Shown here piece after piece: positions 9,771-52,183 of a stretch of 59,653 bases of DNA (position 1 is its first letter; each line of letters starts with the position of its first letter). The notes under the pieces were generated by a model that ran no database searches, was not told where the DNA came from, and worked only from the letters and a program-made list of their open reading frames with translations. Both the position numbers and the translations under genes were made by a program. The stretch comes from Nemertoderma westbladi (taxonomy: Eukaryota; Animalia; Xenacoelomorpha): assembly GCA_032718475.1 (NCBI GenBank), contig JAUCBJ010000260.1, forward strand, positions 1 through 59,653, written 5' to 3'.

Positions 9771-9848
9771 CTGTTTAGAGTATTTACGTATATTAGAAAC
9801 TGTGATTTTTGTATATTTATAGACTCAAATCCCATTTTCTGGGAGCGG

Positions 9849-11118: not shown

Positions 11119-13169
11119 CATGCTTTGTTATAAATGGTGCCGATTGCGCATAGCACGATTTAACAAAAGTTGTATCCATTTGCTCTGAGAAAGTAAGTGC
11201 ACTGCACTGGAAATGTTTCAAAAGTTCTGATCTATTATACTGCGAGCTAAGCATCGAGTTAAGCCTAGGCATGGGATATGCATCCATACACTTGGAATAA
11301 ACAGAGCCCAAGCCGACATAGTTCGCGGACTTAGTATATCCAGCATTCTTTTGAAGACACGCATGAAGTATAGACTGAAGTAGAGTGTTGGGACACGATT
11401 GTATCCTGTGGATCATATTCGTGCCGGTTTTGAATATTTCTGCTGAGAACGAATAACATCCGAGTAAAGAGTAGACTACAGCATTGCTCGCATATGACCC
11501 GAGAAACAATAGACCCCGGAGGATCTTGCGATAATAAATATCTAGTTGCTGAAGCTCTGAGTTTGTGAGTGATCCGACGAAGAATTTTGCTGTATAAAGC
11601 ACCGTAGGAATAGCAACAGTTCTCCATATATAACCGAGAGTATCCACATCCAGCCATCGAATTGTCCAACCATTCTTGTGGAATCTATCCGAGACACTCG
11701 CGATTATTTGGATGCAATCTTGCAGATGGCATTTCTTGCTAGTGTTTACTGGAAAACCCAGAAATGTGATTTGCTCACAAGACGTTATAAGGGTTCCATT
11801 TATATTTATTAGTGATGGTATAGATTGTGAAGAGCAGCCTTGACCGAGACAATACGCCCACTTGGTTTTACTCCCCTCAATCTTGAGACCTATCTTTGCC
11901 AATTGTGTTTCTACGATTTCAACAGCTGTAGTTAATTCCCCCACTGTTCTTCCAATCAACAATATATCATCTGCGTAACCTATAGAACCGAGCCACAAAA
12001 GATCCAGTAGAAACCCCAAACCAGATTCATCCAAGCAATGAAGCACATCTCTTGTGTAAAAAATAAATAAAGCGGGAGAGGTCAACGAACCTTGTTTAAC
12101 ACCTTTTGTTATTGGTATGCCTTCAACCTGAACCTCATTTCCAAATTTAAGATATGCCACTGTACATAAGTAATAGTTGAGAAGTGCAAGACACACATAT
12201 GGGTTCACATTATCCTTCAAATTCCGGAATAAACAGACGAATTCGACATAATCAAAGGCACCAGTCACATCCAACTGACATAGAAACACTGTGTTACCAG
12301 ACCGACGCTGAGACTCCAAGAATTCTAACAAAGCACTTATAACCAAATCTGAGCCTATCTTCTTCTGATACGCAAATTGAGCATTAGGAATCAAATCTTG
12401 TATCGGCAAAAATTCCAGAAGGACAATAGATTCAAATATTTTTCCGAACAGACTCACTGTGGCTATTTGTCTGAAAGATTTATGATGGTTGATGTCACGT
12501 CCCTTTCCCTTATACAGACTTGTTAATATTGTTTCACCAAAAAACTCAGGTATATGTCCAGTTCTTAAACACACATTTATAATGTCTGCAAGAATTCTGC
12601 AAATAAAGTTAGCGTCCAGGCTAAGCACATGTTCAATAACAAGGCCCATTGTATCTGGAGATTTGCCGGTGGATATAGCCAAAATTGCTCGCTGTAGTGT
12701 CATAGCAGAGACAGTAGGTACCACCGCGTCTGGGCAGCTATTCTGCAAGTCCGATTTCAGTTCATTGATGGAAGTGTAGAACTCTTTACCTGGAAAATTT
12801 CTCTCTTCTAGTGCAGACCTTATCTTTTCCTGGGCATTTGTTGGTATTGTTCCACTCGTAATTTTATTAGAAGCAATGCTCTGCCAGAATTTGCTCGGAT
12901 TTGAGGTCATTGTGGCTGCAACCTTCCTGACATTGGCTGAAACTAGATTTCTAGCAAGGAAATTTTTGAGACGCCGAACTGATTTTTTGGACTCCTGATA
13001 CGCTTTACCATAATTGCTATCCATACATTGGCCATCACGACACCACAGGTTATATAGATCCTTTGTAGTTTTTGCCATTATATGTAACCTTGAAGATCTA
13101 ATCCTTATGTTATTTGTCTTGCGTTTGTGTTTAATGGATGGCAGAATTTTAGAAGCTGACTGACAAATG
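11119..13169 (-). mobile_element. Non-LTR retrotransposon reverse transcriptase ORF (possibly RTE-X-like), cut at both ends
   Basis: ORF 13177-11060 has QFAY, LDVTGAFD, GVKQGSLTSP and YADD. Its last ~19 codons come from the BEL LTR inserted into it, and its 5' end abuts the inverted-repeat element. Confidence 0.85.
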
Positions 13170-33568: not shown

Positions 33569-34755
33569 TGTAAAAGCTTTTGTGGGATAACTGATACGTT
33601 TGCCTTTGCTGGCCAGTTCCCCCCCGGTCGCTAGAATACTCTCAAAGGGATTTATAACTAAAATAGTGCAAGCTACCAGCTTATTGGCTGATGTGCTGTG
33701 TGGAGATATCTGGGCTCAGTTTAATCGGCCAACCAGTGTAGGGAGGTTGCCTAAGCCTTGCTGTCCGTGTCGGCCAATAGAATTTGCGTGGGCGTTGATT
33801 TCGACCTATCCCAGCGCTACTGAACTGAATTTCCTATCTCTATGCTCATCCTCTGTGTTGAACGGGGCTTCGTGGAATAAGGGTAGTTGGTATCCTCGTA
33901 TAGTTATTCCAGTCATATGATTCTTCATATGATTCTGTTGTTATGTTCCCATTTTTCGCCATAACACCGGCTTTTTGGGAAGAACTCTAGTAAACTGCTT
34001 AAATTATCGAAAGTATAAACTGTTACCTTAACTAACTCACTTAATTTAACTGCATTAATCATATTGTTTGTACTGTTATTTTACTGTCAGTTATTAATTG
34101 TATCTATTTGTTGATGGAAATATTGCTCTTTGGAGAATACGGATAAATCACCTTAAATTCCCAATTTTCTTGATACACTACAGGTTAGAGAGACGGGCTA
34201 TATATAACAATTGCGATTTATATTAATGTGGTGTGTATTGAATCTAATGTTATTTAGTAGACCCTACATGAGTCAATTACTGCTCTCTTTATGTGTGATC
34301 AAATATACTGACGGTCGGCAGAATAGTGTGTATGATTGTGATTGGTAACAAAGTATTTCCTAAAGAATACGCTTTATACTTTAATCATAAGCGGTATCGT
34401 TGCGTTTTAGTATAAGTCTTAGTTCTGTTTAAATAGATAGAGCGCCACGTCCTAAAGGAACTGTTAATATTTCCCGAAAGCCAATAATATCTGTCAGAAA
34501 TTAATTATTAACGATCTATCGAATAATACAGTAAGTTTACGCTGCAACCTTACACTGCAATAATAAAATTTAAGCATCCGAATTCAGCCTCCCAGGTGTA
34601 GATCCATCGGGTGAATGATCGCGCATGGGCTGACTTCGGCTAATGTTTTGCGTATTAGCATAAAATATTGTCGTATGCTAAAGGTGTTTTAATTAACTAA
34701 AAGACATATAAATTTTGGCAGGTTAAACTGCTAAAGGTCTTCAAAAGCGCGAACA
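33569..34755 (+). repeat. 5' LTR
   Basis: TGTAAAAGC...GCGCGAACA; by eye it differs from the 3' LTR at about four positions. Confidence 0.97.
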
Positions 34756-34768
34756 GTAACAGTTTATA
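34756..34768 (+). promoter_or_regulatory. Putative self-priming primer-binding site
   Basis: GTAACAGTTTATA abuts the LTR, lacks the TGG of tRNA-primed sites, and is the exact reverse complement of LTR 34014-34026 (TATAAACTGTTAC). Confidence 0.65.
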
Positions 34769-35059
34769 ATCTTATTGCAGTAGGCAATAAGGTTGCAAAA
34801 TACCGTAGTGACTAGTAAAACTGAACCGGTACTTCTGTAGGTCAGTAGGCCTAACTGTCATCACCGGTACCGGTACTGCTGTACAAGTACATTTAGTATT
34901 ATTCGATTTTGATTATTGTATACCGGTAGGCTGTTTAAGAGATTAGGGACTGTACACCCCTTGTTTCTTTTGGAGCTTACTTATTTCTGTCGGTTTTATT
35001 TCCTAGTAAGTTAATATTGAGCTGAAGACGTGTAAGTCTGCTCAGATTGTTCAAATAAT

Positions 35060-35570
35060 TGTAGGCTGAACTGCTGTCTGACTGTGTTGAGTTTGGAGAG
35101 ATTACGGCGTGTGTAGAGTTTGTCTGATAAAGTGCCGTTAGTAAGTTGGGGCAGCCATATGCGGTAAGGTCAATCCCCTCTTAAAGAATAAGTCGTACTA
35201 CCGTGTTAGAACGCATACTAACTAACAGTTTCAGAATCTGCATATACTGTAGTTTATTTAGGCTTGATTGTAGTCTGCCAGTGTTTTAGCCTGTGTTTGT
35301 TTGTGTGGTCTGTTCAGGTACCGTAATAGTTATTACTCAGATATTTTGTAGGCTAGATTGTTGTCTAGCTATTCTTAGGCCTGAAGGGATTGCTGCGTGT
35401 GTAGAGTTGGTCTGATAAAGTGCCGTTAGTAAGTTGGGGCAGCCATATGCGGTAAGGTCAATCCCCTCTTAAAGAATAAGTCGTACTACCATGCTAGAAC
35501 GCATACTAACTAACAGTTTCAGAATCTGCACATACTGTAGTTTGTTTAGGCTTGATAGTAGTCTGCCAGC
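35060..35570 (+). repeat. ~288-bp tandem duplication in the 2.1-kb 5' leader
   Basis: GTGTAGAGTT...AAAGAATAAGTCGTACTACC...GTCTGCCAG occurs twice at a 288-bp period. Confidence 0.85.
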
Positions 35571-36910
35571 GTTTAGTTTGTATTTTGTTTGAGTATTCTG
35601 TACGGGTAGCGTAATATTTATTATTCAGAGTTTATGCGATTATTCGCAACATTCATGTCCCCAAGTTTATTCCTACAGTAATTGTGCTTGTTATACATAC
35701 CGTTATAGTTAAATTAACTCCGGTACTACACGGGCTGCTTGGCGTAGGACAAGACTGGTGACTTTGTGCTCTAGTCACTCCAGCAGATGCCGTGGTTCTT
35801 TTAACTGTTCAAGTATATTTAACTACTGATTATTTGTTATACCGGTACTTGTACCTAATTTAGGGTTTAGTGTACAGTGCTTTCCGAAGTAATTAGTGTA
35901 GGCAGTATATTTGTGTTGTAAAGTGGTTGATAGGCACATTCGTTAGCTCTATTAGCTTCTGGGTAGGAACAATCCGTGATACATAACGTAGTACCTATAG
36001 CGATACGGTTATAGGTCGTCAGGCGGTGGTATTTTCCTATCTGGACAGTACAATATATTTACTACTACTTATTATTTCAAATACCGTAGTACCCTGTCCG
36101 TTGTAATAACCAGAATTCTAACCCTTTGTTAGGCTGGTTTGTAGACTTCCTGTAAAATTACCCTAAAAAATTTCGTACGTAATATTTTGTTGTGTTTAAT
36201 TAGAGAATTAATCTCACCAGTATAGTAAGTAATTTGTAGTATTAAGTAACTTAGGTAAATTAGAATTATCAGTTTTAGTGTAAAATAAATAGCACTTCAC
36301 TGAGAGCGCACAGCTTCTGTGTAGTGACTCCCCCAGAAATAATAACATTTATTTCAAATATTGACAAAAAACCCATTTAGATGGGTATATAAATATTATA
36401 AATCAAATCAAACGATTTATAAATAGTAGGCCTGCCATACAACAACTAGGTCTCACTATCAGTTGGACTACTGCTTAAATAACGGTAATAAAGTAAGTTA
36501 AAGTAACTAAGTAACCCTAAAATATTCAGGAATTCAATTATTCTAAAAATAATTGACATACCGGTACTTACCATAGGCTTATTATATTTATTTCTATAAA
36601 TTTGAGCTGAAATCATAACGGTACTCTGTAATTAATTCTAGTTCATAATTATACTTATATATACTATAAGTGTAAGCTGTATACCGGTATTCAAGATAGG
36701 CCTATTATATATTTATATATATCTGTGCTAAATTTATATACCGGTACTCTGTGACAAACCTAGTTTACAATACTTATATATATTATAAGTGCATACCGGT
36801 ATTCTAATATACTGCAATAAATTACCGGTACTAGGCCAGTGGTCATACTGAATTACTAGACTTGCTTTAACTGTAACTATAGCAGTAAGCCTTCAACTGT
36901 ATAGCTAAAC

Positions 36911-39900
36911 ATGTCTGACACTCAGCAAAACCTGTCAGACAGTCTGATCGATACAACTATCTGTGATTCAGATAGGAGTGTGGAGCGAATAAGAAAGGAG
37001 TTCGGCTCACCTCCTACTGTAAAAAAGGTCATCCCTCCAGTAGTATCAGACCCTAGGCTAGTCCACCATAGGTCCATCATAGGCACTCGGGCACAGGTAA
37101 AACGGGACCAAGAGGCAGTTGTCCTATCGCAGCAACATCTTGGTCAAGAACCTACTTCCCAGCGACCCGATAGCTCCAGCAGTTCGGATACTGTAGAGCT
37201 GACTCCCGAACATGGAGTGCAGATGGCTGATACAGTCTACTCAGACCCCCTTCTTACTCTTCCTGCTGCAGTGCTAACTACTATATTCATTGCGGTGGAG
37301 GAACATCAAGCCGACTGGGCGAAGAATAAGCGAGCGACCCAAGATAATTACGCGGGATACGCCAGGGAAGAATTGATATCTATTGTTGAATCACAATGGA
37401 ACTTTCCCGGACTCGGACTTCCGTTGGATCTGTCCGAGGCTACTTGGGAAGATATACACAGGATGGGAGTGGCTAAAGATACAATGGATCCAGCTGTTTG
37501 GAAGAGGTCAGCAGCAGGATATGTGCAGGGATTCTTCGGATCCTTGGATCGATTGGAAGAACAACTGTTTCGACAACCTCACGGACCTCAAGAGCAGGAA
37601 GAGCTGCTATATCAAATACGCGAAAGAACCCTACGCATACGACTAATCCTCTCAGCCTTTGAGGAAACTTCCAAAAGAAGACAGGACACGTCGCTGCAGG
37701 TTGCTGTCAAAACTTGGCTACATCGGGTAGATCTCAAAGTACAGGAAACGGCCCAGTGGAAATCCCAGCTGGCTGAGAGATCAACCTATGAAGAACCAAC
37801 TGATGTCACCCTTTCTCAAGCGGAAAGCGAAGAGGCCGCCGAGAAACCGCGAACTAGAGACGCTATCGACATTTATTTGTCCGACTATCAGCGATTCCTA
37901 GGAGACGAAGAGTTGAGGAGACGGCTGTCTGGACTTTCCCCTAATAGTGAAGGAACCAAGCTTGTGTTGGACTCAATCGATGCCGAAATGTTAGCTGCAA
38001 ACCAAGCTGAATGTGATGAAAAACTCCGCCTCACTAGAGTCCGAGAAGAACAAATAAAGAAAAGAAGGATAGAGGAACAAAAGGCGGCGGCTATGGCAGA
38101 AGCAGAAGTAGAAAGAAAGGCAGCGGCGGCAGATGCAGAAGCAGAAAGAAAGACAGCGGCGGCAGATGCAGAAGCAGAAAGAAAAGCAGCGGCGGCAGAT
38201 GCAGAAGCAGAAAGAAAGGCAGCGGCGGCAGATGCAGAAGCAGAAAGAAAAGCAGCAAAGGCAGTGGCAGAAGCAGAAAGGAGAGCATCTGAGCAGACTA
38301 CCCAACTGGAGTTGGAAAATCTGCAAGAGACACAAGACAGTATAAATAAACAGTTTACTGCTAATCAAATGCAGATGATGAGAAAATCTACTCCCAAGCG
38401 CCAGGGATACACATCCTCGGAGGAAGGCGAGACCACCGATCCTGAAGGCGGAGGAAATAGATCTCATCTAAGTAGGCGTAGAAAAACATCTTACCGTCGC
38501 AAATTGCCTAATTTGCCCCCAGCTGTTAAAAGACAGCTAACTAGCACAGACTTAGCGAGTGCAGAACCCATAGAACAATTTATCCAGGTCAAAAGACTCC
38601 CTACTATAGTCGATGAACCTGAAATAATTAGGCCTGTTGTTCCCAAAGTCACTTCTGTGCTAGAGACCCCTGCACTTCCAGAGCTTAACTCTAAATTCCC
38701 TTTACATAGTACTACACTGCCTGTACCCGGTGGAACAGTCCAAGAGAATACTCCTGTCCAGATAGCAGAGAGAGAAATCAATAATTTGTCTCCCGTCGTC
38801 CCGCGTCAGCCCGCTACTATGTTGGCGACTCCCGCTTCGGCGGTTGAGTGGGTGGAAGAGGGACGGCGGGGGATGAATCTCCTGCTGGGACAGATGCAGG
38901 AGACTGTCCACCAACTTAAGGGAACAGTGAGGGAAGGTAGAGCAGAGTTGCGGGAGGTGCAGCGGAGTGTCGCGCTAGAACGCGACAAATTAGTCAATAT
39001 CCAAAAGGGCATACCAATACCCCCTGTAACATTGTGTCAACCTGTTAGGTCTGAAGTATTACATGCGCAAGGTGTGGAGCCTACACGCATCTATACTGCT
39101 AGTGAAGTTGAAACTCCTATAGCAAACCCTATTAAGGGTGATTATAGACCTGTTATTAATGATATTCCCTATAGACCTGATAATGATCCGAGAAATTTAT
39201 ATACCGATAATTCGATATTAAATAACACGATGGCCCAAGAAAGCTTTACGCGTCAGATGGCTAGAACAGAAGCCCGCCAAGCGGTCAAAGTGGGAGAGAT
39301 CGTCAAATTCAATGGAGATGAGATGAAATGGTTACCTTTCAACGAATATTACAAAGATAGCATACAGAATTCTGTACTATCTAACGGAGAGAAACTTAGA
39401 TTCCTCATCAAATGTTTGGAAGGACCTCCCAAGTTAATGGCGTTAAAGTTTATTGGACATCCAGAAGGATTAAGACAAGTTTGGGATACATTAAACATCA
39501 GGTATGGTAACAAGGATAACATAGCTAAGTATTTGTACGCAAAATTAGTAGCCCCCCGACACTTCCTTAGTAGTGGGATTATAGAGTTTTCCGATGAAAT
39601 TCAAGAGATCTGTAGACAACTGGACTGGTTAGGTAAGTCGCACGAATACCAGAGTTCCATGGTTATTGGAGCCGTAGTCTCTACTTTACCAAAGGGTGGA
39701 GTATGTACACGCTGGGACAAGAAAGTGTTGTACATGAATGAACAACAACGACGAAGTCCTACCATGGCTGATCTCATGTCTTTCTTAGATGGTGAAGTCA
39801 AACTACAACTCATCAAGCAGTCCAGAGAGAAAACATCGGAAAATAAGGTAAGTGAGAAACCCACTTCTAGGAGAAGAGTAACACCGGTGTGTTACACTGA

Positions 39901-41122
39901 CGACGGCGAAAGCCAAGCTTCCCAAGAAGAGGACAGCGGGAAAGATACAGACCGATCGTATTATGTTGACAAAACCTCCAAGGACGTAAGTAAATACAAA
40001 GCTCGAACCAATAATAGGAGAGAACAAGTTACTAAGACCCCTCCTCAGTCTCCTAGCAGAATGCGCGGAAGAAAGCCCGAAGAAAGAACGAGAGTGCATC
40101 AGACTACCCAAGGTAAAGTAAGTAACATAAAACCTAACTGTGCGCTGTGCGACGGGACCCACCGCTTGAGTGCGTGTGCGGAATTTCTAAAGAAATCCCT
40201 TGTAGACAGACGTACAGTTGTGTGGGACAAGCGGTTATGCTATAATTGCCTCAGACCAGGACACCAACGGCGAACCTGTTACTCCGACATAAAGTGTGAA
40301 AAGTGTGGTGCGAAACATCACATCTTGTTACATAGTGAGTTCGAACGAGACAAGCCGAGTCAGGTAAGTGAGTCCGAACTTCATGTCCAATTCAGTGATG
40401 TAAACGACACTGATCAGGAGTCTGAGATGGAAGGATTCTATACTGACGAATTCTCCGACGCCAATGAATCCTGTTATCTAATAAACACCACGGTGTATCG
40501 AGCACTTACTTACGAAAAGGACATCAACGAGGAGTTTCCCCCTACTACTTTTACCAAACAATCATCTTGGAAAGCTCCAACTTCCAACGTAGGAATCAGA
40601 GAATTTCCTGTAGTTCAGGTAAGAGTTCACGGTATTAACAAAAGCTACATAGTGAACGCCCTACTTGACTCAGGCAGCACAGGAACATTCATCGATCAAG
40701 AGCTAGCCGAAGATATCTTTGCTGGACAACCCAAGTTCCGGACTAAATTGAATATGTCAGGAATTATGCAGGTTTGGAAATCTACCCTGACGGCAGATTA
40801 CTATGTAGGTGTGTTGTCCACCCCCCAGGATAAGTTAGGAACACAAGGTGTAAGGTCAGTAAAAATGGTGGCTATAAAGAACTTCGCTACTACCCAAGCA
40901 GACCTTTATAATTGGGACGAGGATGAGAGCATCCAACATCTTAAGATACCTCGATTCCAGACAGATTATCCTGGAGTGCAAATACTCATCGGCCAAAACG
41001 CACACGAAGCGCTTGAGACATTGGAGAAACGGCCTGCTCAACCACAGCCACTGCAAACTTATGCGGTAAGAACTAGAGTAGGTTGGTACTTTACTGGCCC
41101 TTCCCGTAGAACTCTAGAATAG
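36911..41122 (+). CDS. gag: BEL/Pao Gag-protease
   Basis: Long N-terminal coiled-coil extension with AEAERKAAAAD repeats, capsid-like region, three CCHC/CCHH knuckles, LLDSGS protease. Ends at a TAG in frame with pol. Confidence 0.95.
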   Translation: MSDTQQNLSDSLIDTTICDSDRSVERIRKEFGSPPTVKKVIPPVVSDPRLVHHRSIIGTRAQVKRDQEAVVLSQQHLGQEPTSQRPDSSSSSDTVELTPEHGVQMADTVYSDPLLTLPAAVLTTIFIAVEEHQADWAKNKRATQDNYAGYAREELISIVESQWNFPGLGLPLDLSEATWEDIHRMGVAKDTMDPAVWKRSAAGYVQGFFGSLDRLEEQLFRQPHGPQEQEELLYQIRERTLRIRLILSAFEETSKRRQDTSLQVAVKTWLHRVDLKVQETAQWKSQLAERSTYEEPTDVTLSQAESEEAAEKPRTRDAIDIYLSDYQRFLGDEELRRRLSGLSPNSEGTKLVLDSIDAEMLAANQAECDEKLRLTRVREEQIKKRRIEEQKAAAMAEAEVERKAAAADAEAERKTAAADAEAERKAAAADAEAERKAAAADAEAERKAAKAVAEAERRASEQTTQLELENLQETQDSINKQFTANQMQMMRKSTPKRQGYTSSEEGETTDPEGGGNRSHLSRRRKTSYRRKLPNLPPAVKRQLTSTDLASAEPIEQFIQVKRLPTIVDEPEIIRPVVPKVTSVLETPALPELNSKFPLHSTTLPVPGGTVQENTPVQIAEREINNLSPVVPRQPATMLATPASAVEWVEEGRRGMNLLLGQMQETVHQLKGTVREGRAELREVQRSVALERDKLVNIQKGIPIPPVTLCQPVRSEVLHAQGVEPTRIYTASEVETPIANPIKGDYRPVINDIPYRPDNDPRNLYTDNSILNNTMAQESFTRQMARTEARQAVKVGEIVKFNGDEMKWLPFNEYYKDSIQNSVLSNGEKLRFLIKCLEGPPKLMALKFIGHPEGLRQVWDTLNIRYGNKDNIAKYLYAKLVAPRHFLSSGIIEFSDEIQEICRQLDWLGKSHEYQSSMVIGAVVSTLPKGGVCTRWDKKVLYMNEQQRRSPTMADLMSFLDGEVKLQLIKQSREKTSENKVSEKPTSRRRVTPVCYTDDGESQASQEEDSGKDTDRSYYVDKTSKDVSKYKARTNNRREQVTKTPPQSPSRMRGRKPEERTRVHQTTQGKVSNIKPNCALCDGTHRLSACAEFLKKSLVDRRTVVWDKRLCYNCLRPGHQRRTCYSDIKCEKCGAKHHILLHSEFERDKPSQVSESELHVQFSDVNDTDQESEMEGFYTDEFSDANESCYLINTTVYRALTYEKDINEEFPPTTFTKQSSWKAPTSNVGIREFPVVQVRVHGINKSYIVNALLDSGSTGTFIDQELAEDIFAGQPKFRTKLNMSGIMQVWKSTLTADYYVGVLSTPQDKLGTQGVRSVKMVAIKNFATTQADLYNWDEDESIQHLKIPRFQTDYPGVQILIGQNAHEALETLEKRPAQPQPLQTYAVRTRVGWYFTGPSRRTLE

Positions 41123-41125
41123 AGA

Positions 41126-44100
41126 ATGCCCCACGAACAAATATATCAGGTAAGTGATTGGGAAGAGGAAAGCAGTGAGGTGGACGAACTAACTGAGGGA
41201 ACACCATACTCCTCGGATAATGACGACATCTACCAACTCTTCGAAGAAGAGAACACAATTGACCTACTTACCGAAAACCAAACTTGGAAAAACCAAACGA
41301 ACCTATGTCAACTGATTCGCCCAACGGAATCCACTATTTATAATGACGAACTTAATGACGAGGTAGAGCGCTACAACGCTAGAACTCGGGACGAACTCGC
41401 CGTACGATTCTTTACCCAAGAATTGGTAGAACCCAATTCATACGACAAAGCCCTGTCGATAGAAGAAGAAAGAGCCAAGCAAATCCAGGAAACAACCACA
41501 CGTTTTTTAAAAGATCAAGGTAGATATGAAATCGGACTACCCTTCCGAAAACGTGAACCCAGATTTATAAATAACAGACCCTTGGCTGAGAAAAGAATCA
41601 ATCAATTACATCGACGTCTTACGGCAAACGCTTCAGCTAAGGAAATGTACCAAACTCAGTTGAAGAAATTTATCACAAAGGGATATGCGGAGCGAGTACC
41701 GGAAGGAACTCCAATAACTGAAAGGACTTATTATCTAACACATCATTATGTTCCCAAACCCGGTAAACCCCATGAAGTACGGGTTGTATTTGATGGCTCC
41801 GCCCTATATATGGGCCAATCCCTTAATTCAGAGTTGTTACCAGGACCCAACTTGCTCCAATCTTTGTTGGGGATACTGTTGAGATTAAGACAATATTCCA
41901 TCGCGTTCGCCTCCGATATAGAAGGAATATTCCTACAAGTCAAGGCGTTGGATCGTGATAGAGACAGCCTAAGATTCCTGTGGTGGCCTGAAGGAGATCT
42001 CAACCAGAAACCGGTAGAGTACTGGATGACCATACAGGCCTTTGGGATTATATCAAGCCCTTCAAACGCCTGCTCAGTGGTCCGTACCACTGCGGATGAC
42101 AACCGGGATGCCTTCTCTAAAGAGGTGATAGATAACATCAAACGAGACATATACATGGACGACAATTTAAAGTCCCTTCCATCAGTAAAGGAAGCCATTG
42201 ATGTCGCGAAAGGAACGGTTGAGTGTTTGAAAAGAGGTGGATTTCGATTGACGAAGTTCACCAGCAACTCCCGTGAGTTTCTGGAAGCAATATCTATAGA
42301 AGACCGGGGATCAAAAGATCTCGACTTAATATATGACGATCTTCCGGAAACCAAGACGCTTGGCTTGAAGTGGGACACAGAAAGAGATATCCTGTTTTTT
42401 CAATTAAAACAGCGAGATAATCCAGTTCGGACCAAACGGATTTGTTTAAGTATTCTGAGCACTTATTTCGATCCCTTGGGATTTATTAGCCCAGTTATAT
42501 TGATTGCTCGGAGTTTAGTCCAACAAATGTGGCTGGAAAACCACTCGTGGGACGATCCACTCAAGGGAGAACTATTAAAGAAATGGATGAAATGGGAGGA
42601 TTCGCTACCTGCCATCGAGAACTTTATAATTTCCCGTTCATATTTTGGTCATGTTCTCCCTACGTATTCCTATCAACTCCATGTATTTGGAGATGCCAGC
42701 GATATGGGGATCGGTATAGTAACATATCTGCGAGTCGAAACTCCGGATGGAATCAAAGTTGCCTTGGTTACCTCTAAGGCATTGATTAACAACAAGCTTA
42801 AGGTTCCTCGGGCGGAGTTAAAAGCAGCATTATACGCTACCGCTATCGGACGGAATGTAACAGAACAGATCGATTATCCACTGGAGAAAACTGTTTATTG
42901 GACCGACGCTTTACTTGTATTGGAATATATAACGAATGAAGTCTGTCAGTTCAGCGTCTTTGTTACTAACAGAGTGGCCATTATTCTTAGTCGCACAACG
43001 ATAGATCAATGGAGACATTGCCCTGGTACGATTAACCCAGCTGACATCGCCTCCAGAGGAGCAACTCCACAGGAACTGATAGATACCCCTGACTGGTTGG
43101 GTGGACCCGACTTCTTGAGCAAGGAAGAGGATGAATGGCCTCCTCACCTTACTACGGCTGAGATTAGACAAGCCAAGGGAGCGGAGAAAGTCAAACCCAA
43201 AATTCGGACAAGTAAATCGAAGTTATTTAAACCGACAATCGACCTATCTGTATTACATACTGCCGAGAACGATACTTCGGATCCACAATCCCTCGCCACA
43301 AACAAATCTGTTGTGGAAATTAGAGACAGAGATTGGAAATCTGAGATACCAGACGTCTCGCAAGGAATCTCACCCCTGCTGCAGAGAGCACTGCATCATT
43401 ACAGTTCCTGGAATCGTCTCTGTAAAGCTATCACATACTTAAAGAGATGTTTTCACCATCATTACTCCAGGAAGAAGACCACTAGTGATCCTGCTCCGGT
43501 AACATCTGCGCAAGTTCATGTTATTAAAGATCTACCTAAGTACAAGATATCAGACCGGTTTCTAAAAGAGAAGATCAGCTACCAGGAGCATGAAGAAACT
43601 AATAAGCAGATACTGAGACTCTTGCAATGCTATGAGGATTCCGATAGGTACTTTCTGTTGTTGAGAAATCCGCAGATGCGCTTAAGGGATCGCTTCTCTA
43701 GCACAATGATAGATGGGTTAATACGTGTTGGAGGAAGGCTTACAAACGCCCCATTATCCTTTGATACTAAATTCCCTATACTCATTAGTAATCTTGAAGT
43801 ACAAATCAAGATGATTGTAGATGTTCACAGTAAATTGTATCATGCTGGTAGAGAACGAGTTCTTAGCGAGATTCGAACCCGCTATTATTTTCATAAACCA
43901 CGTAGAGCTCTGAATCAAGTTCTTAGGAACTGCATACCTTGTAGGAAAGTATTCAGTAGGCCTTTAACACAGCGAGAGGCAGAATTACCTAGGGAACGAG
44001 TAAGCTTTTATGAACCACCCTTTACTAATACTGGTGTGGATTTATTTGGCCCTATTGAAGTATATCGTGCTAGAACTATAATCAAGAGATGGTGTGTAAT

Positions 44101-45037
44101 CTTTGTCTGCATGACTTGTAGAGCTATCCATCTCGATATGGTGAATGATCTATCTACTAACAGCTTCGTCTTATGTTTACGACGACAGATCGCTCGTTTC
44201 GGCACTAGCAATACGATGAGATCCGATAAGGGAACGAACTTCATTGGTGCTAACAACGAAATTCAGGCTTACGTAAAGGACTGGAATCAAAGACAGGTGG
44301 ATGACCAGCTACGGATAACGGCGTCTAGCTGGACCTTTAACGCCGCCGATGCCCCTTGGTGGGGAGGAAGTTGGGAGAGATTAATTCGAAGTGTCAAGAC
44401 CGCATTTCACTTTATAGTGCCGTGCCGCGCATATCTCACCGACGAACTTCTACGGACGTTAATGGAAGAAATCGCTGCCTATCTTAACGAGAGACCGCTT
44501 ATGCCAGTCTCATCGAGTATCGACTCCCTGGAAGCGCTAACACCCGCGCACTTCCTACTTAAGAAACCTGTAGCCATGCTCCCACAATCCGAGATTGCCG
44601 ATGGAGATGAATACTGTCGTCGAACTTGGCAGCTTATGCAGTTGCTATCCCGTCGTTTCGCTGACCATTTTGAGAAACATTATCTGCCCACGCTACAACT
44701 TCGAACTAAGTGGTTTGCGCAGCAGGAAAATGTCAGCGCCGGAGACATGGTCCTTATTGTAGATCCGGACCTCCCACGTAGACGGTGGCAGATCGGTCGT
44801 ATCATCGAGACGCATATCTCGGAGGATGGTCTAGTGCGCTCAGTAGAACTCGTCGTAATGCGGCGTAACTTCAAGAAACCCGGGATAATCTTTGAGACGC
44901 AACAACTCAATCGCCCAGTTGGTCGCTTATGTTTGCTGGAAAGAGACAGGGAACTCTCCGGAAACTATGGAAGACAAGACACTCTTCCCACGACCACCTC
45001 CCTAATACCTCAAACATTTAGGGGCTCTTCAACGTAG
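41126..45037 (+). CDS. pol: BEL/Pao Pol (RT, RNase H, integrase)
   Basis: RVVFDGS, SDIEGIFLQV, YMDD; VFGDAS, PRAEL, WTDA, NPAD; H..H..CIPC, GVDLFGP, SDKGTNF, WERLIRSVK. Confidence 0.97.
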   Translation: MPHEQIYQVSDWEEESSEVDELTEGTPYSSDNDDIYQLFEEENTIDLLTENQTWKNQTNLCQLIRPTESTIYNDELNDEVERYNARTRDELAVRFFTQELVEPNSYDKALSIEEERAKQIQETTTRFLKDQGRYEIGLPFRKREPRFINNRPLAEKRINQLHRRLTANASAKEMYQTQLKKFITKGYAERVPEGTPITERTYYLTHHYVPKPGKPHEVRVVFDGSALYMGQSLNSELLPGPNLLQSLLGILLRLRQYSIAFASDIEGIFLQVKALDRDRDSLRFLWWPEGDLNQKPVEYWMTIQAFGIISSPSNACSVVRTTADDNRDAFSKEVIDNIKRDIYMDDNLKSLPSVKEAIDVAKGTVECLKRGGFRLTKFTSNSREFLEAISIEDRGSKDLDLIYDDLPETKTLGLKWDTERDILFFQLKQRDNPVRTKRICLSILSTYFDPLGFISPVILIARSLVQQMWLENHSWDDPLKGELLKKWMKWEDSLPAIENFIISRSYFGHVLPTYSYQLHVFGDASDMGIGIVTYLRVETPDGIKVALVTSKALINNKLKVPRAELKAALYATAIGRNVTEQIDYPLEKTVYWTDALLVLEYITNEVCQFSVFVTNRVAIILSRTTIDQWRHCPGTINPADIASRGATPQELIDTPDWLGGPDFLSKEEDEWPPHLTTAEIRQAKGAEKVKPKIRTSKSKLFKPTIDLSVLHTAENDTSDPQSLATNKSVVEIRDRDWKSEIPDVSQGISPLLQRALHHYSSWNRLCKAITYLKRCFHHHYSRKKTTSDPAPVTSAQVHVIKDLPKYKISDRFLKEKISYQEHEETNKQILRLLQCYEDSDRYFLLLRNPQMRLRDRFSSTMIDGLIRVGGRLTNAPLSFDTKFPILISNLEVQIKMIVDVHSKLYHAGRERVLSEIRTRYYFHKPRRALNQVLRNCIPCRKVFSRPLTQREAELPRERVSFYEPPFTNTGVDLFGPIEVYRARTIIKRWCVIFVCMTCRAIHLDMVNDLSTNSFVLCLRRQIARFGTSNTMRSDKGTNFIGANNEIQAYVKDWNQRQVDDQLRITASSWTFNAADAPWWGGSWERLIRSVKTAFHFIVPCRAYLTDELLRTLMEEIAAYLNERPLMPVSSSIDSLEALTPAHFLLKKPVAMLPQSEIADGDEYCRRTWQLMQLLSRRFADHFEKHYLPTLQLRTKWFAQQENVSAGDMVLIVDPDLPRRRWQIGRIIETHISEDGLVRSVELVVMRRNFKKPGIIFETQQLNRPVGRLCLLERDRELSGNYGRQDTLPTTTSLIPQTFRGSST

Positions 45038-46664
45038 CACGTCTGGAGTGGGTGTATGTCTATGTTATTTTATCTGTTTTTATTACATTTTTATATGTAA
45101 ATGTTATTATGTACGTTATTATAATCGTTTTTATTTAATTTTATTTAGTAAAAGGTTATTTTTAGAATATTTAGTAAATTAGTGTAATATATTAGTGTTT
45201 ATTACGTATTTAATTACTTATAATATATTTATTGCGACGGCAAGAAATAATTATTTTTCTCTTTCCTTACTGTCCGTATTATATTATAAATGCGAGACTA
45301 TAGTAAGATGACATGTCAGTACTTCTTAAAGTACAATAAAGCCACTACTATATTTAAGTATTATTGCAATATTGGTAGGCAGAGTATTAGGAATGCAAAG
45401 TTCAGATCCTCGTGTCTCGGCTAAACCAAGCTCTGGGTAGACCTTGGAAACGACTTGCCTCTTCACACTGACATTGCTTCGTGCGATATTGCTCTTCTCC
45501 TTATAACAAATAATACATATAGTAGCGTGATGTCCCTCTAACAGTAGCGTAAATCGCAAATAAATCTGTTAAACTTTTGACCATCTGTAATTCTAGTCGA
45601 TTAAGATATCGTGGCACCCACCGATATACTTGAAAGACAAATTCTAGAATCAGTGGTTAACGTCCCCAGACAAGTTCTGGAATAAATCGGTGCCCATCCT
45701 AAATATTAATTTAATATTTATTAAAATCTGTAAAATTCAGATCCGTTAACAATTCTAGTCGATTAAGATATCGTAGCACTTACCGATACTCTTAAAAGAC
45801 AAATTTCATAGAATTAAGGATCCTATGTCCCCAGACCTGCTCTGGAATCAAATTGTGTCAATTTTAACATCAAATAATAAAATTCACGGGAATAAATTTA
45901 AATTCATATTCGAATGAATTTCATAAATTGTCATTTTGTGCAATTTACAACATTCCCAAAATTCCAGTAATTAATAGATCATGGGAGCGGAGATTCATAT
46001 TGAGTGTACTAGAGTGCGAGAATCTCCAATATATAGTCAATAGCCGATAAAATTTATAAAATCAGGCATAAAGAGAAGATTGACAATTAAAGAATTACTA
46101 TTAAATAACATCCCAGATCTGTATACATGAGAATTGCCCTAATTCTACCGCTAGTTTTCCATAATGTCACCATGGCAACACCCACGCTAGAATTAGAAGC
46201 AAGTTAAAGGAACAATAAAAGGCTTGCCCCATTGCATAGCCTAAGAGGATACATAGCGCACTATTAGTATCCAAGGATACATAGTAATAACGTGACATTC
46301 TGGAAGACACTGACTAACGGACAAATGGCATGCATGTGTGCAGTAAGTAATGATTGTATGGAATTTGTGCGTTTATAGGTGAATGTTACTACTAAAGTGT
46401 GTTTACAGTAGCTAATCGCAATTGTAAAGTAGCCCTAACTCTACCGAGATAACCTCAAGTGGATTCAAGCCTTTGGGACGGACAGTGGTGGGACTTGTGC
46501 CGGTTATCGTTGTCGTGCTGTTGCTACATGTTGGCGTAAACACTGCGACAACGGTACATCGGCGCTGAGAAACCCACTGTCCGGGGGCAAAGTCTAGTAG
46601 GCAGCGACGCCCGCTTGCCTAAAATATTAACTCATATTGATATTAATAAACTCAGATAGCAGAT

Positions 46665-49600
46665 ATGACGGAATTGATAGAAGATGACCTTGGTATTAGA
46701 GAGCGATATACTCTACCTTTACAAGCGTTTGTGGATAGCTTGATACGCGGTGAAGCCGATCCGACTATTACGGAGGACGATGGTCGTTATATCGAACCGC
46801 CGATGTCCCAGGAACAACTTACGCGTGAAGCGGACTATAGAAAATTCACCACTCGCTATACGAATCGTAATGGTACGTATATGGACTTCTTAACTACCGG
46901 CCATCCTACCGATTTACATGATACTGATGATGTAGACACCGAAAGGGAAATGGTTTTATTTAAATATCATGCCCAGCGGAATCGTAACGATAAACCGAGA
47001 ATAGAACACGAGAACTCTATTCGCAACCTACTCGACAGAGAAAACGTTGAAGAACCCGATAAGCGCATCAACTTCAACGACTACTTGGAATTTTTGCGGG
47101 AAACCTATCTCAATATTGCCAGTCAACAGAACCTAGAGACTCGATATCCTCAAGGTATACATCACGATCCCATGGTAGAACTCAAACGACTCTATTTCAC
47201 CATGATGTATCTTACCGCAGATCGTCCACTGCCTGTTGTCCCGGACAGCTTTGAACAAATGGAAGAGTATTGCAAAACTGGAGAACGATCACCCGCGTTT
47301 CCTCTGCAGGACGTACGTCTTTGGTATTATTGTGACTCATGTCCTAGACCTAACCAGCAAACGGAAAGACATAAACATCCGCGGAGACGTTGTGCTAAAC
47401 ACAGTTTTACGCGTTATACTTACGGGAGTTTCGAGCGAAACCTGTTCGACGTATCACCTACGATCGCCCGTCTAAAACGATCGCTAAATAAACCCATGAT
47501 CAGAGTTCCGGAATACTCAGTCAGACCTCCCCATTTCCCCGTGAGACCTCAAACTCTTGATCCTAACAGTATCACTGATCCTCCCGAATTATACTCACTG
47601 TTCAAGGATTTGGTGTTACCCGAGCAGTTAATCGGTGGTGTTCCGGCGGTAGGTTCGTTGGATATTCGACCATCCTATTTAACCGGATTGGGACGCGGAC
47701 ATCTAACATCGCCATTTAATCCTTACAACCGGCCAGGATTAACTCCGATACAACCTGCCACGGAAGTCGAGGAGAGTGTCATCAGAAACGCTCTAGACGC
47801 CATCCGACAGAAAATCGGAAAGGGAACCCAGGATTTTCTAGAGAAACGTAAATTACAGCAGCAGGTCCAATCGGTGAAAGAGCTAGCCTTGCCGCAGTTT
47901 GATAGAGAAATCCAAAACCTCGAAGAGGACATCGAGCTTGGACGTACGTATTCTCTACAGGAGTTTCTGGAAGAACGCTTGCAGAAACAGGCGGAGGAGA
48001 ATCAACTGGAGGAGAGGCATACGGAAATGGATGAGAGAGAAGAAGCCGCTTTAGCCCAACCCGAAACTCAGATACTCATAACCGATCTCTACTCTAAAAC
48101 CGTCCGTCATCCCTCGATGGTTCCGCATTTCGGAGACAAACTTTTCGCAAAGATACAACCCCAACCGGTTGATATCAGCATAAGATCGCAAAATCTTATC
48201 GCTGACGCTCCTATGTTACAGCGTCCGCCAATCGAGGCCGCTCGAGTTGACGGTATACTCGTTGAACCTCCGGACAATCGAGCGGATCTTGTCCGTCGTA
48301 TGGTACACGATGTCAACATACGCGCTAGACCTTTACAGAACTCTTTTTATGGAATTAAAGATCACCCTTATTACGTTAATCTGACTCAATATTATATGGT
48401 AAAACCAGAAGATCCGACGCATGATTTAAAGTTTCTACCACTAATAAATCCTCTGGACATTGTCGAACTCGAACAATTGCAAAAACATCTGGATCAATTA
48501 GTAAAGGTAAACTCATTTCGAAAACCATATAACGTTTCTCGAATAGAGAAGGATACAGAACCTCCTTATAATCTCGATGGATTTATTAAAACTCGATTAG
48601 TCCATTGGAATCTAGACGTATTATTCGAGGAGGAGAAAATCCAAAGATATGGAAATGTGGAGACGTATACCACTCGATATATGAAGTATAGTGATCTCCC
48701 TGACGCTAGTCAATGCGCCACCTTGTGGCATCCGGTAGGGATGACCCTCGAGAACGCCACCAAAGAGTGGAATGAAACTCTTAATATCATTGAGATGTAT
48801 GGCGTTGTTACTTACGATAACGAAGGTAGCGTTCCAATCGGAGAATTAGGAACTACGCGCATGATACACATACGCGGATTAGCTGGCTCCACTCACGTGT
48901 TTACGCGAGCGTGTTACGACGTGATCGATTATTCCTTTGAAACTCTCACCGAAACGCAAAAGAATCTCCGACATGGACAATTCGAACTCGCGCAGCGTTA
49001 CGTCATTGACACCGAACGCAAACCGGCCATGGGTATCGATGGATCGATGTTACCCCAGCCCGTTCTCGAGATGTTATTCAACGAAAGAATCATTAAAATC
49101 GGCTCAGCTGTTTACGGAGATCTCCAAAACGACTTTCGGAATATGGAGAATATCCCCTATCCTTTCGTGGATACTCAGCTGATAGCTCCTTGGGCCGAAG
49201 GCCGAGGTTTCTTTCGCACCATGTATGCTAATGTGTCTAGCAATATTACAAAGGTGCAACGAACTTCCATCGGACATCTTGCCTTTCAGGAATACGGGTG
49301 GAATTTCAAGGTCGGAAATCCCATCAACTATCAACAAGTATACGGAGACCATTATTCTCGATTATACTTTGACGGACCGTTGACCGCACCTGGCGCCGTG
49401 TATAGCTTCATGAGTGTTCCACTCCGTCCCTCCTTAGCTATCTACACGATCTTCGAAAACACCGCACTTTCCGGTTGGCTAGCCGATGTGTGCAGTCGCA
49501 CTATACGCGCCCATCCATTAATCCTTGGGACCAAACTCGCTAAGCTAGATGAACATAATAAATTCATCCGCTTTGAATGTTTCCGACGGTTTTTAACCCC

Positions 49601-50918
49601 GTTTCGCAACGTGGATAGCCAATTCAAAGACCGCACTTTGACCAAGCTCAGCTTAAGAGACTCGGCTGCGGAGAAGTTAGATAGCGCTGGATTCGCTATT
49701 TTCAGAGACATTTGTGTAATAAACCTGCACTCCTCGGTTATCCAAAGACCTCGGATCCCCACCGGTTATTCTGTCGTGGAAATTCAGACGGTAGGTCCAC
49801 TTGAGGAGACAGCCACACCTACCTCAACTATACAAGGGGAAGACGAACCCATATGTTTAGAATCTGAAGAGATTCAGCCCCCCACGTCTCGGAGTAGCGA
49901 TAGCGACTACATATTGGAATGGTATCAAGGTCCCCAGTGTCTTACTGCGTATGATTATCGCCATGCCAATTATGTTTCTAGACAACGTTGTCGGCTGTGC
50001 GCATCGAGAGACCATATTACGTCTATGGACACCAACGATCTTTGTTCCTATTTCCACGAGCAACCGTCGATGGAAATCTATTGTGCATATTGTCGGCTTA
50101 ATAATTTGCACATTTTTGCTGTCTGCCCCCAATTTATGACTCAATGCCATCATTGTCAATTAAAAGGACACGCCAGCTTTGATTGTCCCTTTAACCATGA
50201 TTTAGAGAGCGTAGATGAAATGATTGTACTACGTTATATCAGAGCTTGGGAAGCGAACGCTGATTTACATTGTGATTCACGCCATCGCTATTATCCTGGA
50301 CGCGCTTACGAAGGAGTTTATGCGTTCCATCCTTATTTGTTTGCCTCCGTCGAGCAGAAATCGCGCCTATCAAGTTATGAACTATTGAAGCGCGTTGGAG
50401 AATGTATTTCAACCAAATATGTACGCAAATTCCTCAGGAGCATTAATCCGAGTGACATCAATTCGTATAACTTAATAAACTTTATCCGTCAAGATCCGGC
50501 CTATGGAGACTTATTTGTCAACTCACACCCCGAGTTACAAGAAGTATATCGACGGCCTTACGAGTACAGAGCCCGCGAACGCGAGTTGGAAAGAACCATT
50601 AAACCAAGGAAGTTTCTAACTGCCTATGGTCCACCCACGGCCCTCGTTCAGACCACTCGTAAAGGACCCGTAAGAGCGGCTGTCTTGAAACGAGCTCTCA
50701 AAGCCGTTAGACCCCTCTCCCCGGACGTTGATGTCAATCAACCCGGTACTTCGACCGGCGGATATACCGATCGCAATCCCATACCTTCTGATGCAATCAT
50801 ATTGCACCCTTCACCCAGGAGTTATAGCCCTCCTCGTAAAGTGGCTCGCCCCAAAGAGAAAAGGACTCTTGCTAGCTTTAAAAAACTGCGTAAACGCCGT
50901 CCGCGCAAGAAAGACTAA
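46665..50918 (+). CDS. Accessory ORF3 (1417 aa): DEDDy-like 3'-5' exonuclease domain, three CCHC knuckles, basic C-terminal tail
   Basis: VVTYDNEG (ExoI), LPQPVLEMLFNERIIKIGSAVYGD...FVDTQ (ExoII), SIGHLA, PLRPSLAIYTIFE (ExoIII); CRLC..H..C, CAYC..H..C, CHHC..H..C. Intact, and inside the LTRs. Confidence 0.8.
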   Translation: MTELIEDDLGIRERYTLPLQAFVDSLIRGEADPTITEDDGRYIEPPMSQEQLTREADYRKFTTRYTNRNGTYMDFLTTGHPTDLHDTDDVDTEREMVLFKYHAQRNRNDKPRIEHENSIRNLLDRENVEEPDKRINFNDYLEFLRETYLNIASQQNLETRYPQGIHHDPMVELKRLYFTMMYLTADRPLPVVPDSFEQMEEYCKTGERSPAFPLQDVRLWYYCDSCPRPNQQTERHKHPRRRCAKHSFTRYTYGSFERNLFDVSPTIARLKRSLNKPMIRVPEYSVRPPHFPVRPQTLDPNSITDPPELYSLFKDLVLPEQLIGGVPAVGSLDIRPSYLTGLGRGHLTSPFNPYNRPGLTPIQPATEVEESVIRNALDAIRQKIGKGTQDFLEKRKLQQQVQSVKELALPQFDREIQNLEEDIELGRTYSLQEFLEERLQKQAEENQLEERHTEMDEREEAALAQPETQILITDLYSKTVRHPSMVPHFGDKLFAKIQPQPVDISIRSQNLIADAPMLQRPPIEAARVDGILVEPPDNRADLVRRMVHDVNIRARPLQNSFYGIKDHPYYVNLTQYYMVKPEDPTHDLKFLPLINPLDIVELEQLQKHLDQLVKVNSFRKPYNVSRIEKDTEPPYNLDGFIKTRLVHWNLDVLFEEEKIQRYGNVETYTTRYMKYSDLPDASQCATLWHPVGMTLENATKEWNETLNIIEMYGVVTYDNEGSVPIGELGTTRMIHIRGLAGSTHVFTRACYDVIDYSFETLTETQKNLRHGQFELAQRYVIDTERKPAMGIDGSMLPQPVLEMLFNERIIKIGSAVYGDLQNDFRNMENIPYPFVDTQLIAPWAEGRGFFRTMYANVSSNITKVQRTSIGHLAFQEYGWNFKVGNPINYQQVYGDHYSRLYFDGPLTAPGAVYSFMSVPLRPSLAIYTIFENTALSGWLADVCSRTIRAHPLILGTKLAKLDEHNKFIRFECFRRFLTPFRNVDSQFKDRTLTKLSLRDSAAEKLDSAGFAIFRDICVINLHSSVIQRPRIPTGYSVVEIQTVGPLEETATPTSTIQGEDEPICLESEEIQPPTSRSSDSDYILEWYQGPQCLTAYDYRHANYVSRQRCRLCASRDHITSMDTNDLCSYFHEQPSMEIYCAYCRLNNLHIFAVCPQFMTQCHHCQLKGHASFDCPFNHDLESVDEMIVLRYIRAWEANADLHCDSRHRYYPGRAYEGVYAFHPYLFASVEQKSRLSSYELLKRVGECISTKYVRKFLRSINPSDINSYNLINFIRQDPAYGDLFVNSHPELQEVYRRPYEYRARERELERTIKPRKFLTAYGPPTALVQTTRKGPVRAAVLKRALKAVRPLSPDVDVNQPGTSTGGYTDRNPIPSDAIILHPSPRSYSPPRKVARPKEKRTLASFKKLRKRRPRKKD

Positions 50919-50988
50919 CTGTTTAGAGTATTTTTATATTTTAGAAACTGTGATTTTGTATATTTTATAGACTTAAATCCCATTTTCT

Positions 50989-50996
50989 GGGAGCGG
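50989..50996 (+). promoter_or_regulatory. Short polypurine tract
   Basis: GGGAGCGG immediately before the 3' LTR; identical at 9841-9848. Confidence 0.6.
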
Positions 50997-52183
50997 TGTA
51001 AAAGCTTTTGTGGGATAACTGATACGTTTGCCTTTGCTGGCCAGTTCCCCCCCGGTCGCTAGAATACTCTCAAAGGGATTTATAACTAAAATAGTGCAAG
51101 CTACCAGCTTATTGGCTGATGTGCTGTGTGGAGATATCTGGGCTCAGTTTAATCGGCCAACCAGTGTAGGGAGGTTGCCTAAGCCTTGCTGTCCGTGTCG
51201 GCCAATAGAATTTGCGTGGGCGTTGATTTCGACCTATCCCAGCGCTACTGAACTGAATTTCCTATCTCTATGCTCATCCTCTGTGTTGAACGGGGCTTCG
51301 TGGAATAAGGGTAGTTGGTATCCTCGTATAGTTATTCCAGTCATATGATTCTTCATATGATTCTGTTGTTATGTTCCCATTTTTCGCCATAACACCGGCT
51401 TTTTGGGAAGAACTCTAGTAAACTGCTTAAATTATCGAAAGTATAAACTGTTACCTTAACTAACTCACTTAATTTAACTGCATTAATCATATTGTTTGTA
51501 CTGTTATTTTACTGTCAGTTATTAATTGTATCTATTTGTTGATGGAAATATTGCTCTTTGGAGAATACGGATAAATCACCCAAAATTCCCAATTTTCTTG
51601 ATACACTACAGGTTAGAGAGACGGGCTATATATAACAATTGCGATTTATATTAATGTGGTGTGTATTGAATCTAATGTTATTTAGTAGACCCTACATGAG
51701 TCAATTACTGCTCTCTTTATGTGTGATCAAATATACTGACGGTCGGCAGAATAGTGTGTATGATTGTGATTGGTAACAAAGTATTTCCTAAAGAATACGC
51801 TTTATACTTTAATCATAAGCGGTATCGTTGCGTTTTAGTATAAGTCTTAGTTCTGTTTAAATAGATAGAGCGCCACGTCCTAAAGGAACTGTTAATATTT
51901 CCCGAAAGCCAATAATATCTGTCAGAAATTAATTATTAACGATCTATCGAATAATACAGTAAGTTTACGCTGCAACCTTACACTGCAATAATAAAATTTA
52001 AGCATCCGAATTCAACCTCCCGGGTGTAGATCCATCGGGTGAATGATCGCGCATGGGCTGACTTCGGCTAATGTTTTGCGTATTAGCATAAAATATTGTC
52101 GTATGCTAAAGGTGTTTTAATTAACTAAAAGACATATAAATTTTGGCAGGTTAAACTGCTAAAGGTCTTCAAAAGCGCGAACA
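50997..52183 (+). repeat. 3' LTR
   Basis: Same length and near-identical sequence as the 5' LTR. Confidence 0.97.

Follow-up and report, generated by a model that had tools for sequence, protein, structure and literature searches.

The window analyzed here, the 59,653-nucleotide contig JAUCBJ010000260.1 of the Nemertoderma westbladi (Xenacoelomorpha) assembly GCA_032718475.1, carries an 18.6-kb long terminal repeat (LTR) retrotransposon, assigned to the BEL/Pao type, that has a further open reading frame (ORF3, product P0001) between pol and the 3′ LTR. From sequence comparisons we hold with high confidence that ORF3 specifies a domain with the DEDDy exonuclease fold and, given that fold, consider the domain probably catalytic. 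Our preferred interpretation, to which we give a probability of roughly 0.35, is that ORF3 is an active RNase D-like 3′-to-5′ exoribonuclease with three zinc knuckles that would be translated from a separate spliced mRNA and would trim or destroy host small silencing RNAs.

A sequence-only reading of the window had described ORF3 as an intact 1417-codon frame in the env position with no signal peptide or membrane segment, and both points were upheld: the frame is uninterrupted (coordinates of all features are in Table 1), the N-terminus of the product is acidic, and the highest hydropathy of any 19-residue stretch is 1.33. Based on that hydropathy maximum and the lack of an envelope match in Pfam, we rejected a viral env identity for ORF3. 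The residues proposed as catalytic had been placed correctly, with D718 and E720 encoded at 48816 and 48822, D819 at 49119, Y927 at 49443 and E931 at 49455, as had a Cys/His cluster near residue 225 (CDSC...H..C..H, residues 223-246) and the C-terminal tail KKLRKRRPRKKD, which is basic. Most of the 1417 residues, including a Q/E-rich stretch, fall outside the nuclease domain; a Pfam search with residues 1-682 gave no match, and with the whole of P0001 the only match was a knuckle (E=0.59).

The window also contains a second copy of the element, in which ORF3 is reduced to 121 codons of its N-terminus and ~225 of its C-terminus, the entire exonuclease and knuckle region being gone. Comparison of the two copies showed ORF3 to be under purifying selection at both ends, with ratios of nonsynonymous to synonymous substitution (dN/dS) of 0.14 for the N-terminal 121 codons (p=7e-7) and 0.10 for 223 C-terminal codons (p=1e-14), similar to those of gag (0.19) and protease (0.15) in the same comparison; these figures describe the ends of ORF3 alone, which weighs against our interpretation. 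The earlier view of ORF3 as a family trait is borne out by the retention of, and selection on, its termini in both copies, and the dN/dS of the ends rules out that ORF3 is a neutral relic.

Evidence for the exonuclease domain comes from weak profile matches that agree with one another. When 18,950 NCBIfam models were scanned at E-values of up to 10, P0001 had two matches, both to RNase D (E=0.0067 and 0.063, residues 798-848). A profile of 49 bacterial DEDDy domains (RNase D plus short RNase D-like domains) scored P0001 at 8.4 bits and its homolog P0004, described below, at 7.1 bits, values reached by none of 500 shuffles of each, and hhalign comparison of the P0001/P0004 pair with this profile returned 87% (E=3.6e-6), as opposed to no more than 1.1% for any of 40 shuffles. 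In the ESM Atlas, 24 of the 30 matches to residues 640-1000 were annotated DNA_pol_A_exo1 (best scores 0.92); the neighbors are 3′-5′ exonuclease clusters, both of those listed being from giant viruses. Neighbors of both ORF3 and P0004 carry PF01612, from whose members ORF3 differs in falling below the Pfam threshold, in insertions of ~40 residues before ExoII and ExoIII, and in the glutamate at ExoIII. ORF3 also has LP..V..L....IK.G....D followed by a DTQ block, which we take to be the signature of WRN/EXD2/MUT-7/EXD1-type enzymes.

At the level of individual residues, unguided MAFFT alignment with 40 bacterial domains put K811, D819, L920, Y927 and E931 on conserved columns, and the ExoII aspartate D819 and the DTQ block after it were in register by NCBIfam, profile and MAFFT alike. 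The spacing at ExoIII (P-L-x6-Y-x3-acid) is that of Escherichia coli RNase D, the acid being glutamate in both P0001 and P0004. In anchored ExoI scans D718 ranked 1-6 of ~1400 positions. We rejected D755 as ExoI, as it has no glutamate at +2 and fell below D718 in all six scans. A further candidate, D782, sits 29 residues before K811, as opposed to ~50 in RNase D, and is helical in both of the low-confidence models discussed below. As judged from these alignments, D819 and Y927/E931 appear well placed, and D718/E720 is the likely ExoI.

An exhaustive HMMER search with ORF3 residues 101-1300 against 1.84 billion representative sequences had a single match (E=4.4e-6), P0004, an unnamed 648-residue protein in ENA from a single 9.4-kb contig. 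P0004 aligns to ORF3 residues 775-942 (30% identity over 171 residues), and the knuckle regions match as well, with a score that none of 2000 shuffles reached. Its motifs run D62-x-E64, D130 in IKVGSNIKAD, DTQ and Y229-x3-E233, followed by three knuckles; the exonuclease-plus-three-knuckle layout and the ExoIII glutamate are therefore common to the two proteins. On Pfam it gives DNA_pol_A_exo1 weakly (E=0.2), with P-L-x3-Q-x2-Y-x3-acid spacing as in RNase D. Its top ESM Atlas match is a euglenozoan exonuclease-plus-CCHC cluster (score 0.86), which we regard as a lead only, and by sequence P0004 matched nothing in PDB other than nucleocapsid-type knuckles. The three CCHC knuckles of ORF3 that had been noted earlier start at C1109, C1140 and C1161; canonical CX2CX4HX4C spacing is found in the third only, the first being CX2CX4HX9C and the second CX2CX5HX4C. 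No HRDC domain was detected in ORF3 residues 976-1417 at E-values of up to 10. Other searches for relatives were negative: word-index searches, each over one length band, yielded none among 7991 candidates for full ORF3 or 558 for its nuclease region and returned only the query among 1434 for the nuclease region of P0004; no related locus was seen in viral or metagenome contigs; and with tblastn phages gave no match and plasmids a single one, irrelevant and 36 residues long.

A number of results weigh against the exonuclease assignment. Pfam did not detect the exonuclease in P0001, no cut-off being met, the NCBIfam RNase D score was 15.7 bits relative to a cut-off of 299, and the profile match spans only the 48-column ExoII block. 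The ExoI segment alone scored no better between P0001 and P0004 than in 981 of 2000 shuffles, unguided MAFFT put ExoI at D755, D782 was among the top three in four of the six anchored scans, Y927 ranked 8th of 1398 in the ExoIII scan, and the ExoIII acid is glutamate instead of aspartate. ESM Atlas scores of at least 0.9 arise in 4-10 of every 100 shuffled proteins, and the shared-feature counts were 157-167, under 170. Nor did structure prediction bear out the fold: a single-sequence AlphaFold model had a predicted confidence (pLDDT) of 30, and a second model, seeded with the ExoII-ExoIII portions of 40 bacterial domains out of the 49 and with ExoI placement left to the model, reached 51 and left ExoI unplaced. 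Foldseek returned nothing at E≤0.001; the weak rows of the second model are circular because it was seeded with bacterial DEDDy domains. PDB sequence searches with the nuclease region found nothing relevant, and PHROGs gave only weak matches of unlabelled function (E=0.13 and 0.22). The earlier proposal of a DEDDy-like exonuclease with knuckles is thus backed by concordant weak profiles and by one homolog with the same motifs, and went unconfirmed by Pfam and by structure.

Regarding expression, one contig of run X5 joins LTR sequence to a point upstream of the ORF3 start codon: it leaves the LTR after ...CACTAC and resumes at 46447 (the joint being given as 3′ LTR position 51603 to 46447). 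Transferred to the 5′ LTR, the joint exits at AG|GT (34183/34184) and lands past the AG at 46448, with CTAAC just upstream, and the AG|GT donor context is the same in all three LTRs of the window. Splicing from an LTR to a downstream frame is the arrangement of env-type subgenomic mRNAs, and this one contig suggests that ORF3 is made from an env-like spliced mRNA; if the joint is a splice, the transcript would start upstream of 34183. Set against this, the joint was chosen post hoc from 27 joint rows listed, of many more, run X5 is presumed to be DNA, and the acceptor is a weak GAG, the second copy having TAG two bases earlier. The joint may be a DNA deletion at short homology, which would count against splicing, or a copy made from spliced mRNA.

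Besides the WRN/EXD2/MUT-7/EXD1-type enzymes, three known systems resemble ORF3 in part. The rotifer LTR elements Juno and Vesta and the Athena/Terminon elements carry RNase D-like DEDDy ORF3s with the motif DEED, for which activity is not shown there (Rodriguez et al. 2017, PMC5408684); the case was cited later in PMC5718144, PMC6431247 and PMC6338049. Those of Juno and Vesta are, like the frame described here, separate ORFs downstream of pol in the place of env, with intact-looking catalytic residues and no membrane segment. They differ in motif (DEED as opposed to D-E-D-E) and, as compared by description, in having a Cys-His-Cys motif in only two, where ORF3 is 1417 residues long with three C-terminal CCHC knuckles; moreover, the main text of PMC5408684 has neither BEL nor Pao as a whole word, and the carrier here is BEL/Pao. 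Juno, Vesta or Athena ORFs were not among the word-index or representative-search matches of ORF3 and P0004, and membership in the DEED group is ruled out by the motif (ExoII D, ExoIII E). In the Trypanosoma brucei enzyme TbRND (Gao et al. 2020, PMC7797062), an RNase D-type exonuclease is followed, as in the layout of ORF3, by a linker and several CCHC fingers that take the place of HRDC. Overexpression of TbRND depletes small guide RNAs, and its fingers, which contact the RNA at bases 5-9 counted from the 3′ end, enhance cleavage. It differs from ORF3 in being cellular, ~380 residues long, with four fingers and a canonical DEDD, and since no sequence match to ORF3 or P0004 was found in PDB searches, we take the likeness as one of architecture. 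Lastly, Dada DNA transposons of Laccaria and Ectocarpus carry a DEDDy domain and a CCHC finger in one and the same protein (PMC3706591); there the DEDDy domain is inserted within a DDE transposase and has a canonical DEDD.

Taken together, these observations lead us to propose the following mechanism. The sequence itself shows the position of ORF3, its intact frame, selection on its two termini and the lack of a membrane segment. The ORF3 product is predicted to adopt a DEDDy fold with D718/E720/D819/Y927/E931 as active-site residues, and the LTR-to-ORF3 splice suggested by the X5 contig would release it from Gag-Pol as a trans-acting protein. On the model of TbRND, the knuckles would hold a single-stranded RNA a few bases inward of the 3′ end, leaving the nuclease to take bases off. 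The weakest step concerns the substrates, which may be small silencing RNAs or their precursors, with a benefit to full and deleted copies alike. Three features lead us to favor a trans-acting RNA exonuclease: ORF3 is set apart from Gag-Pol, its product ends in a basic tail, and similar ORFs occur in unrelated retroelement classes; the recurrence of DEDDy ORFs in such classes argues that their benefit is independent of any one replication scheme (PMC5408684). The choice of substrate is tentative and made by analogy, and the observation that in the DEDDy-bearing rotifer elements small RNAs map to every ORF type, with no clear gain in copy number (PMC5408684), counts against a strong suppressor. 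Still more doubtful is the broader proposal that ORF3 and P0004 represent a previously undescribed family of mobile DEDE-plus-triple-CCHC exoribonucleases of RND-like build, which an animal BEL/Pao element would make from an env-like spliced mRNA and use as enzymatic suppressors of Piwi-interacting RNA (piRNA) or small interfering RNA silencing by destroying guide RNAs.

The alternative that survives best, although we consider it unlikely, is that the active exonuclease has the RNA of the element itself as its substrate, polishing the 3′ end of a self-primer once the transcript has been cut or trimming the 3′ end of the genomic RNA. The primer-binding site does not begin with the TGG of tRNA priming; instead, the first 13 bases beyond the 5′ LTR form a complement to 34014-34026 within it, the longest complement among 2144 starts (chance 6e-5). 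The minimum-energy fold pairs the two segments, and the stretch around 34014-34026 is a conserved island in the second copy's LTR, most of which has diverged; this pattern suggests tRNA-independent, Tf1-type self-priming in this BEL/Pao element. The cut that makes the primer in Tf1 is reportedly performed by its own RNase H. Trimming of the self-primer by ORF3 is possible, and is not required to explain the element: Tf1-type self-priming is known, and as the self-primed Tj1 is drawn with Gag, protease (PR), reverse transcriptase (RT) and integrase (IN) only (PMC4600332), a link between self-priming and the exonuclease is optional. Action on the element's own RNA would also be consistent with the likeness of the CCHC knuckles to nucleocapsid fingers, as in the PDB matches of P0004, and 3′-end processing of element RNA has been proposed in PMC5408684; against it, a separately made ORF3 product need not enter the particle.

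Less probable again is that the DEDDy fold serves as a non-catalytic RNA-binding adaptor of the Egalitarian or EXD1 kind, acting in transport, packaging or sequestration. The glutamate at ExoIII and the insecure placement of ExoI would fit this, as would the bulk of the protein outside the nuclease, with its Q/E-rich stretch and basic tail, and Maelstrom and EXD1 are examples of DEDD derivatives that lack activity yet still bind RNA (PMC5408684). However, acidic residues and the tyrosine stand at all sites in two proteins that are only ~30% identical, a degree of conservation not expected of an inactive enzyme, and the presence of acidic residues at all four sites in P0001 and P0004 makes a dead transport adaptor the less likely option. 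We think it improbable that ORF3 assists reverse transcription or integration by proofreading or by processing ends, and so permits the unusual 18.6-kb length much as ExoN, which has been linked to large nidovirus genomes (10.1101/2021.02.01.429129), does in nidoviruses. Terminons, which reach 40 kb, also carry DEDDy ORFs (PMC6431247), the Dada domain has been proposed to process cleaved 3′ ends (PMC3706591), and EXD2 and WRN were among the non-significant Foldseek rows; on the other hand, ORF3 is not fused to RT or integrase, the solved exonuclease-plus-CCHC enzyme TbRND works on single-stranded RNA (PMC7797062), and the larger LTR elements Burro and Ogre are, in the accessible accounts, described without such a domain. 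That ORF3 has no DnaQ/DEDD fold, its motifs being chance look-alikes in an orphan zinc-knuckle protein, would accord with the unreliable models and the lack of significant Pfam, PDB-sequence and Foldseek matches, and is equally improbable given that different methods converge on one family and that P0004 gives DNA_pol_A_exo1 and RNase D spacing.

The element itself is of the BEL/Pao type as judged from its domain set, the YMDD of its RT, and its LTR and target-site features. Pfam identified DUF1759 (E=7e-12), Peptidase_A17 (E=6e-36), DUF5641 (E=6e-20) and an integrase zinc finger, and the order Gag-PR-RT-RNase H-IN with Pao-type domains is present. Its two LTRs differ at 4 of 1187 bases and the 5-bp target-site duplication CCAAC flanks the element on both sides, from which we deduce a recent insertion. 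An in-frame stop at 41120-41122, present in neither the second copy nor the read contigs, splits gag-protease from pol, so that the copy at 33569-52183 is probably non-autonomous. Read contigs from all four runs cover all 30 element bins, with many variants; their depth, greater at the ends of ORF3 than in its core, was left out of account because it gives no ranking of genes or of their parts. The spacer between pol and ORF3 has 7% differences between copies, and is thus more conserved than the synonymous sites of gag, protease and ORF3 (dS 0.22-0.28); it holds a 100-bp direct repeat (45589-45686 and 45751-45851); an Rfam scan of the element, spacer included, gave no match. Other repeats are a tandem duplication of ~285 bp (35059-35341 and 35346-35629) in the 2.1-kb leader before gag (34756-36910) and, in gag, a coding 33-bp tandem repeat at 38062-38320 (AAAADAEAERK-like units) whose copy number differs in the second element.

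With respect to the second copy, its pol deletion joints (41226-43002 and 43191-44900) recur in read contigs of several runs, and it probably represents a spreading non-autonomous subfamily. Another ORF3 deletion, seen in one run, shares the left end at 47027 with the second copy and has its right end at 49837 instead. Roughly 530 bp in the first half of the second copy's 3′ LTR (9850-11119) has diverged beyond alignment, while the internal region is 90% identical; LTR exchange is a possible cause.

Elsewhere in the window, a host degenerin/ENaC-type channel gene (Pfam ASC) with extracellular low-density lipoprotein receptor class A repeats and few introns lies at 17876-20178 on the minus strand; a gene of this type and the class of the element are in keeping with an animal source. 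Two RVT_1 fragments outside the LTR elements (11060-13186, minus strand, and 24291-25343, plus strand) probably belong to non-LTR elements, and the intervals 27624-29140 and 57007-58200 hold inverted minisatellite arrays with units of 15/17 bp and a tandem array with units of 16 bp.

Table 1. Features of the two element copies, in window coordinates.
Feature	Position	Strand	Remarks
Second element copy, ~90% identical	1..11119	+	deletions in pol; ORF3 core deleted out of frame
ORF3 remnants of second copy	8731-9093 and 9094-9771	+	
LTR retrotransposon, whole	33569-52183	+	18.6 kb
5′ LTR, 1187 bp, TG...CA	33569..34755	+	CCAAC target-site duplication directly before
13-nt LTR complement of primer-binding site	34014..34026	+	candidate self-primer; putative transcript start
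Candidate intron, GT...AG	34184..46448	+	one contig of run X5; joins LTR exon to 216 nt before ORF3 ATG
Primer-binding site	34756..34768	+	without the TGG start of tRNA priming
Gag-protease frame	36911..41122	+	DUF1759, weak aspartyl protease; in-frame stop at its end
pol	41123..45037	+	RT with YMDD, Peptidase_A17, integrase, DUF5641; same frame as gag
Spacer, non-coding, 1.6 kb	45038..46664	+	between pol and ORF3
ORF3 (P0001), 1417 aa	46665..50918	+	open frame; dN/dS 0.14 at N-end, 0.10 at C-end
Predicted DEDDy/RNase D-like exonuclease domain	48747..49544	+	~residues 695-960; D718-x-E720 likely ExoI, D819 ExoII, Y927-x3-E931 ExoIII
Three CCHC-type zinc knuckles	49989..50186	+	also in P0004
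3′ LTR, 1187 bp	50997..52183	+	short purine-rich tract before, CCAAC target-site duplication after

The architecture is in part already described, DEDDy ORF3s downstream of pol being on record from bdelloids (PMC5408684) and the exonuclease-plus-CCHC combination from TbRND (PMC7797062). A DEDDy ORF3 in a BEL/Pao element was not found in a literature search by title and start of abstract, the coverage of which largely excludes subscription journals, Repbase reports and supplements. What is new here is the carrier superfamily BEL/Pao, the active-site variant, the architecture and the near-orphan sequence. That a BEL/Pao element has such an ORF, with a different active-site variant and an RND-like zinc-knuckle tail, suggests that capture occurred repeatedly and independently, and hence that it brings a general advantage. 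Because the frame is intact, its ends are selected, the proposed catalytic residues can be named and an enzyme of like architecture has been solved, the role of such ORFs becomes testable. If our interpretation is correct, the trimming of host small RNAs by a transposon-encoded enzyme would count as a direct countermeasure to piRNA silencing of a kind rarely seen in animals.

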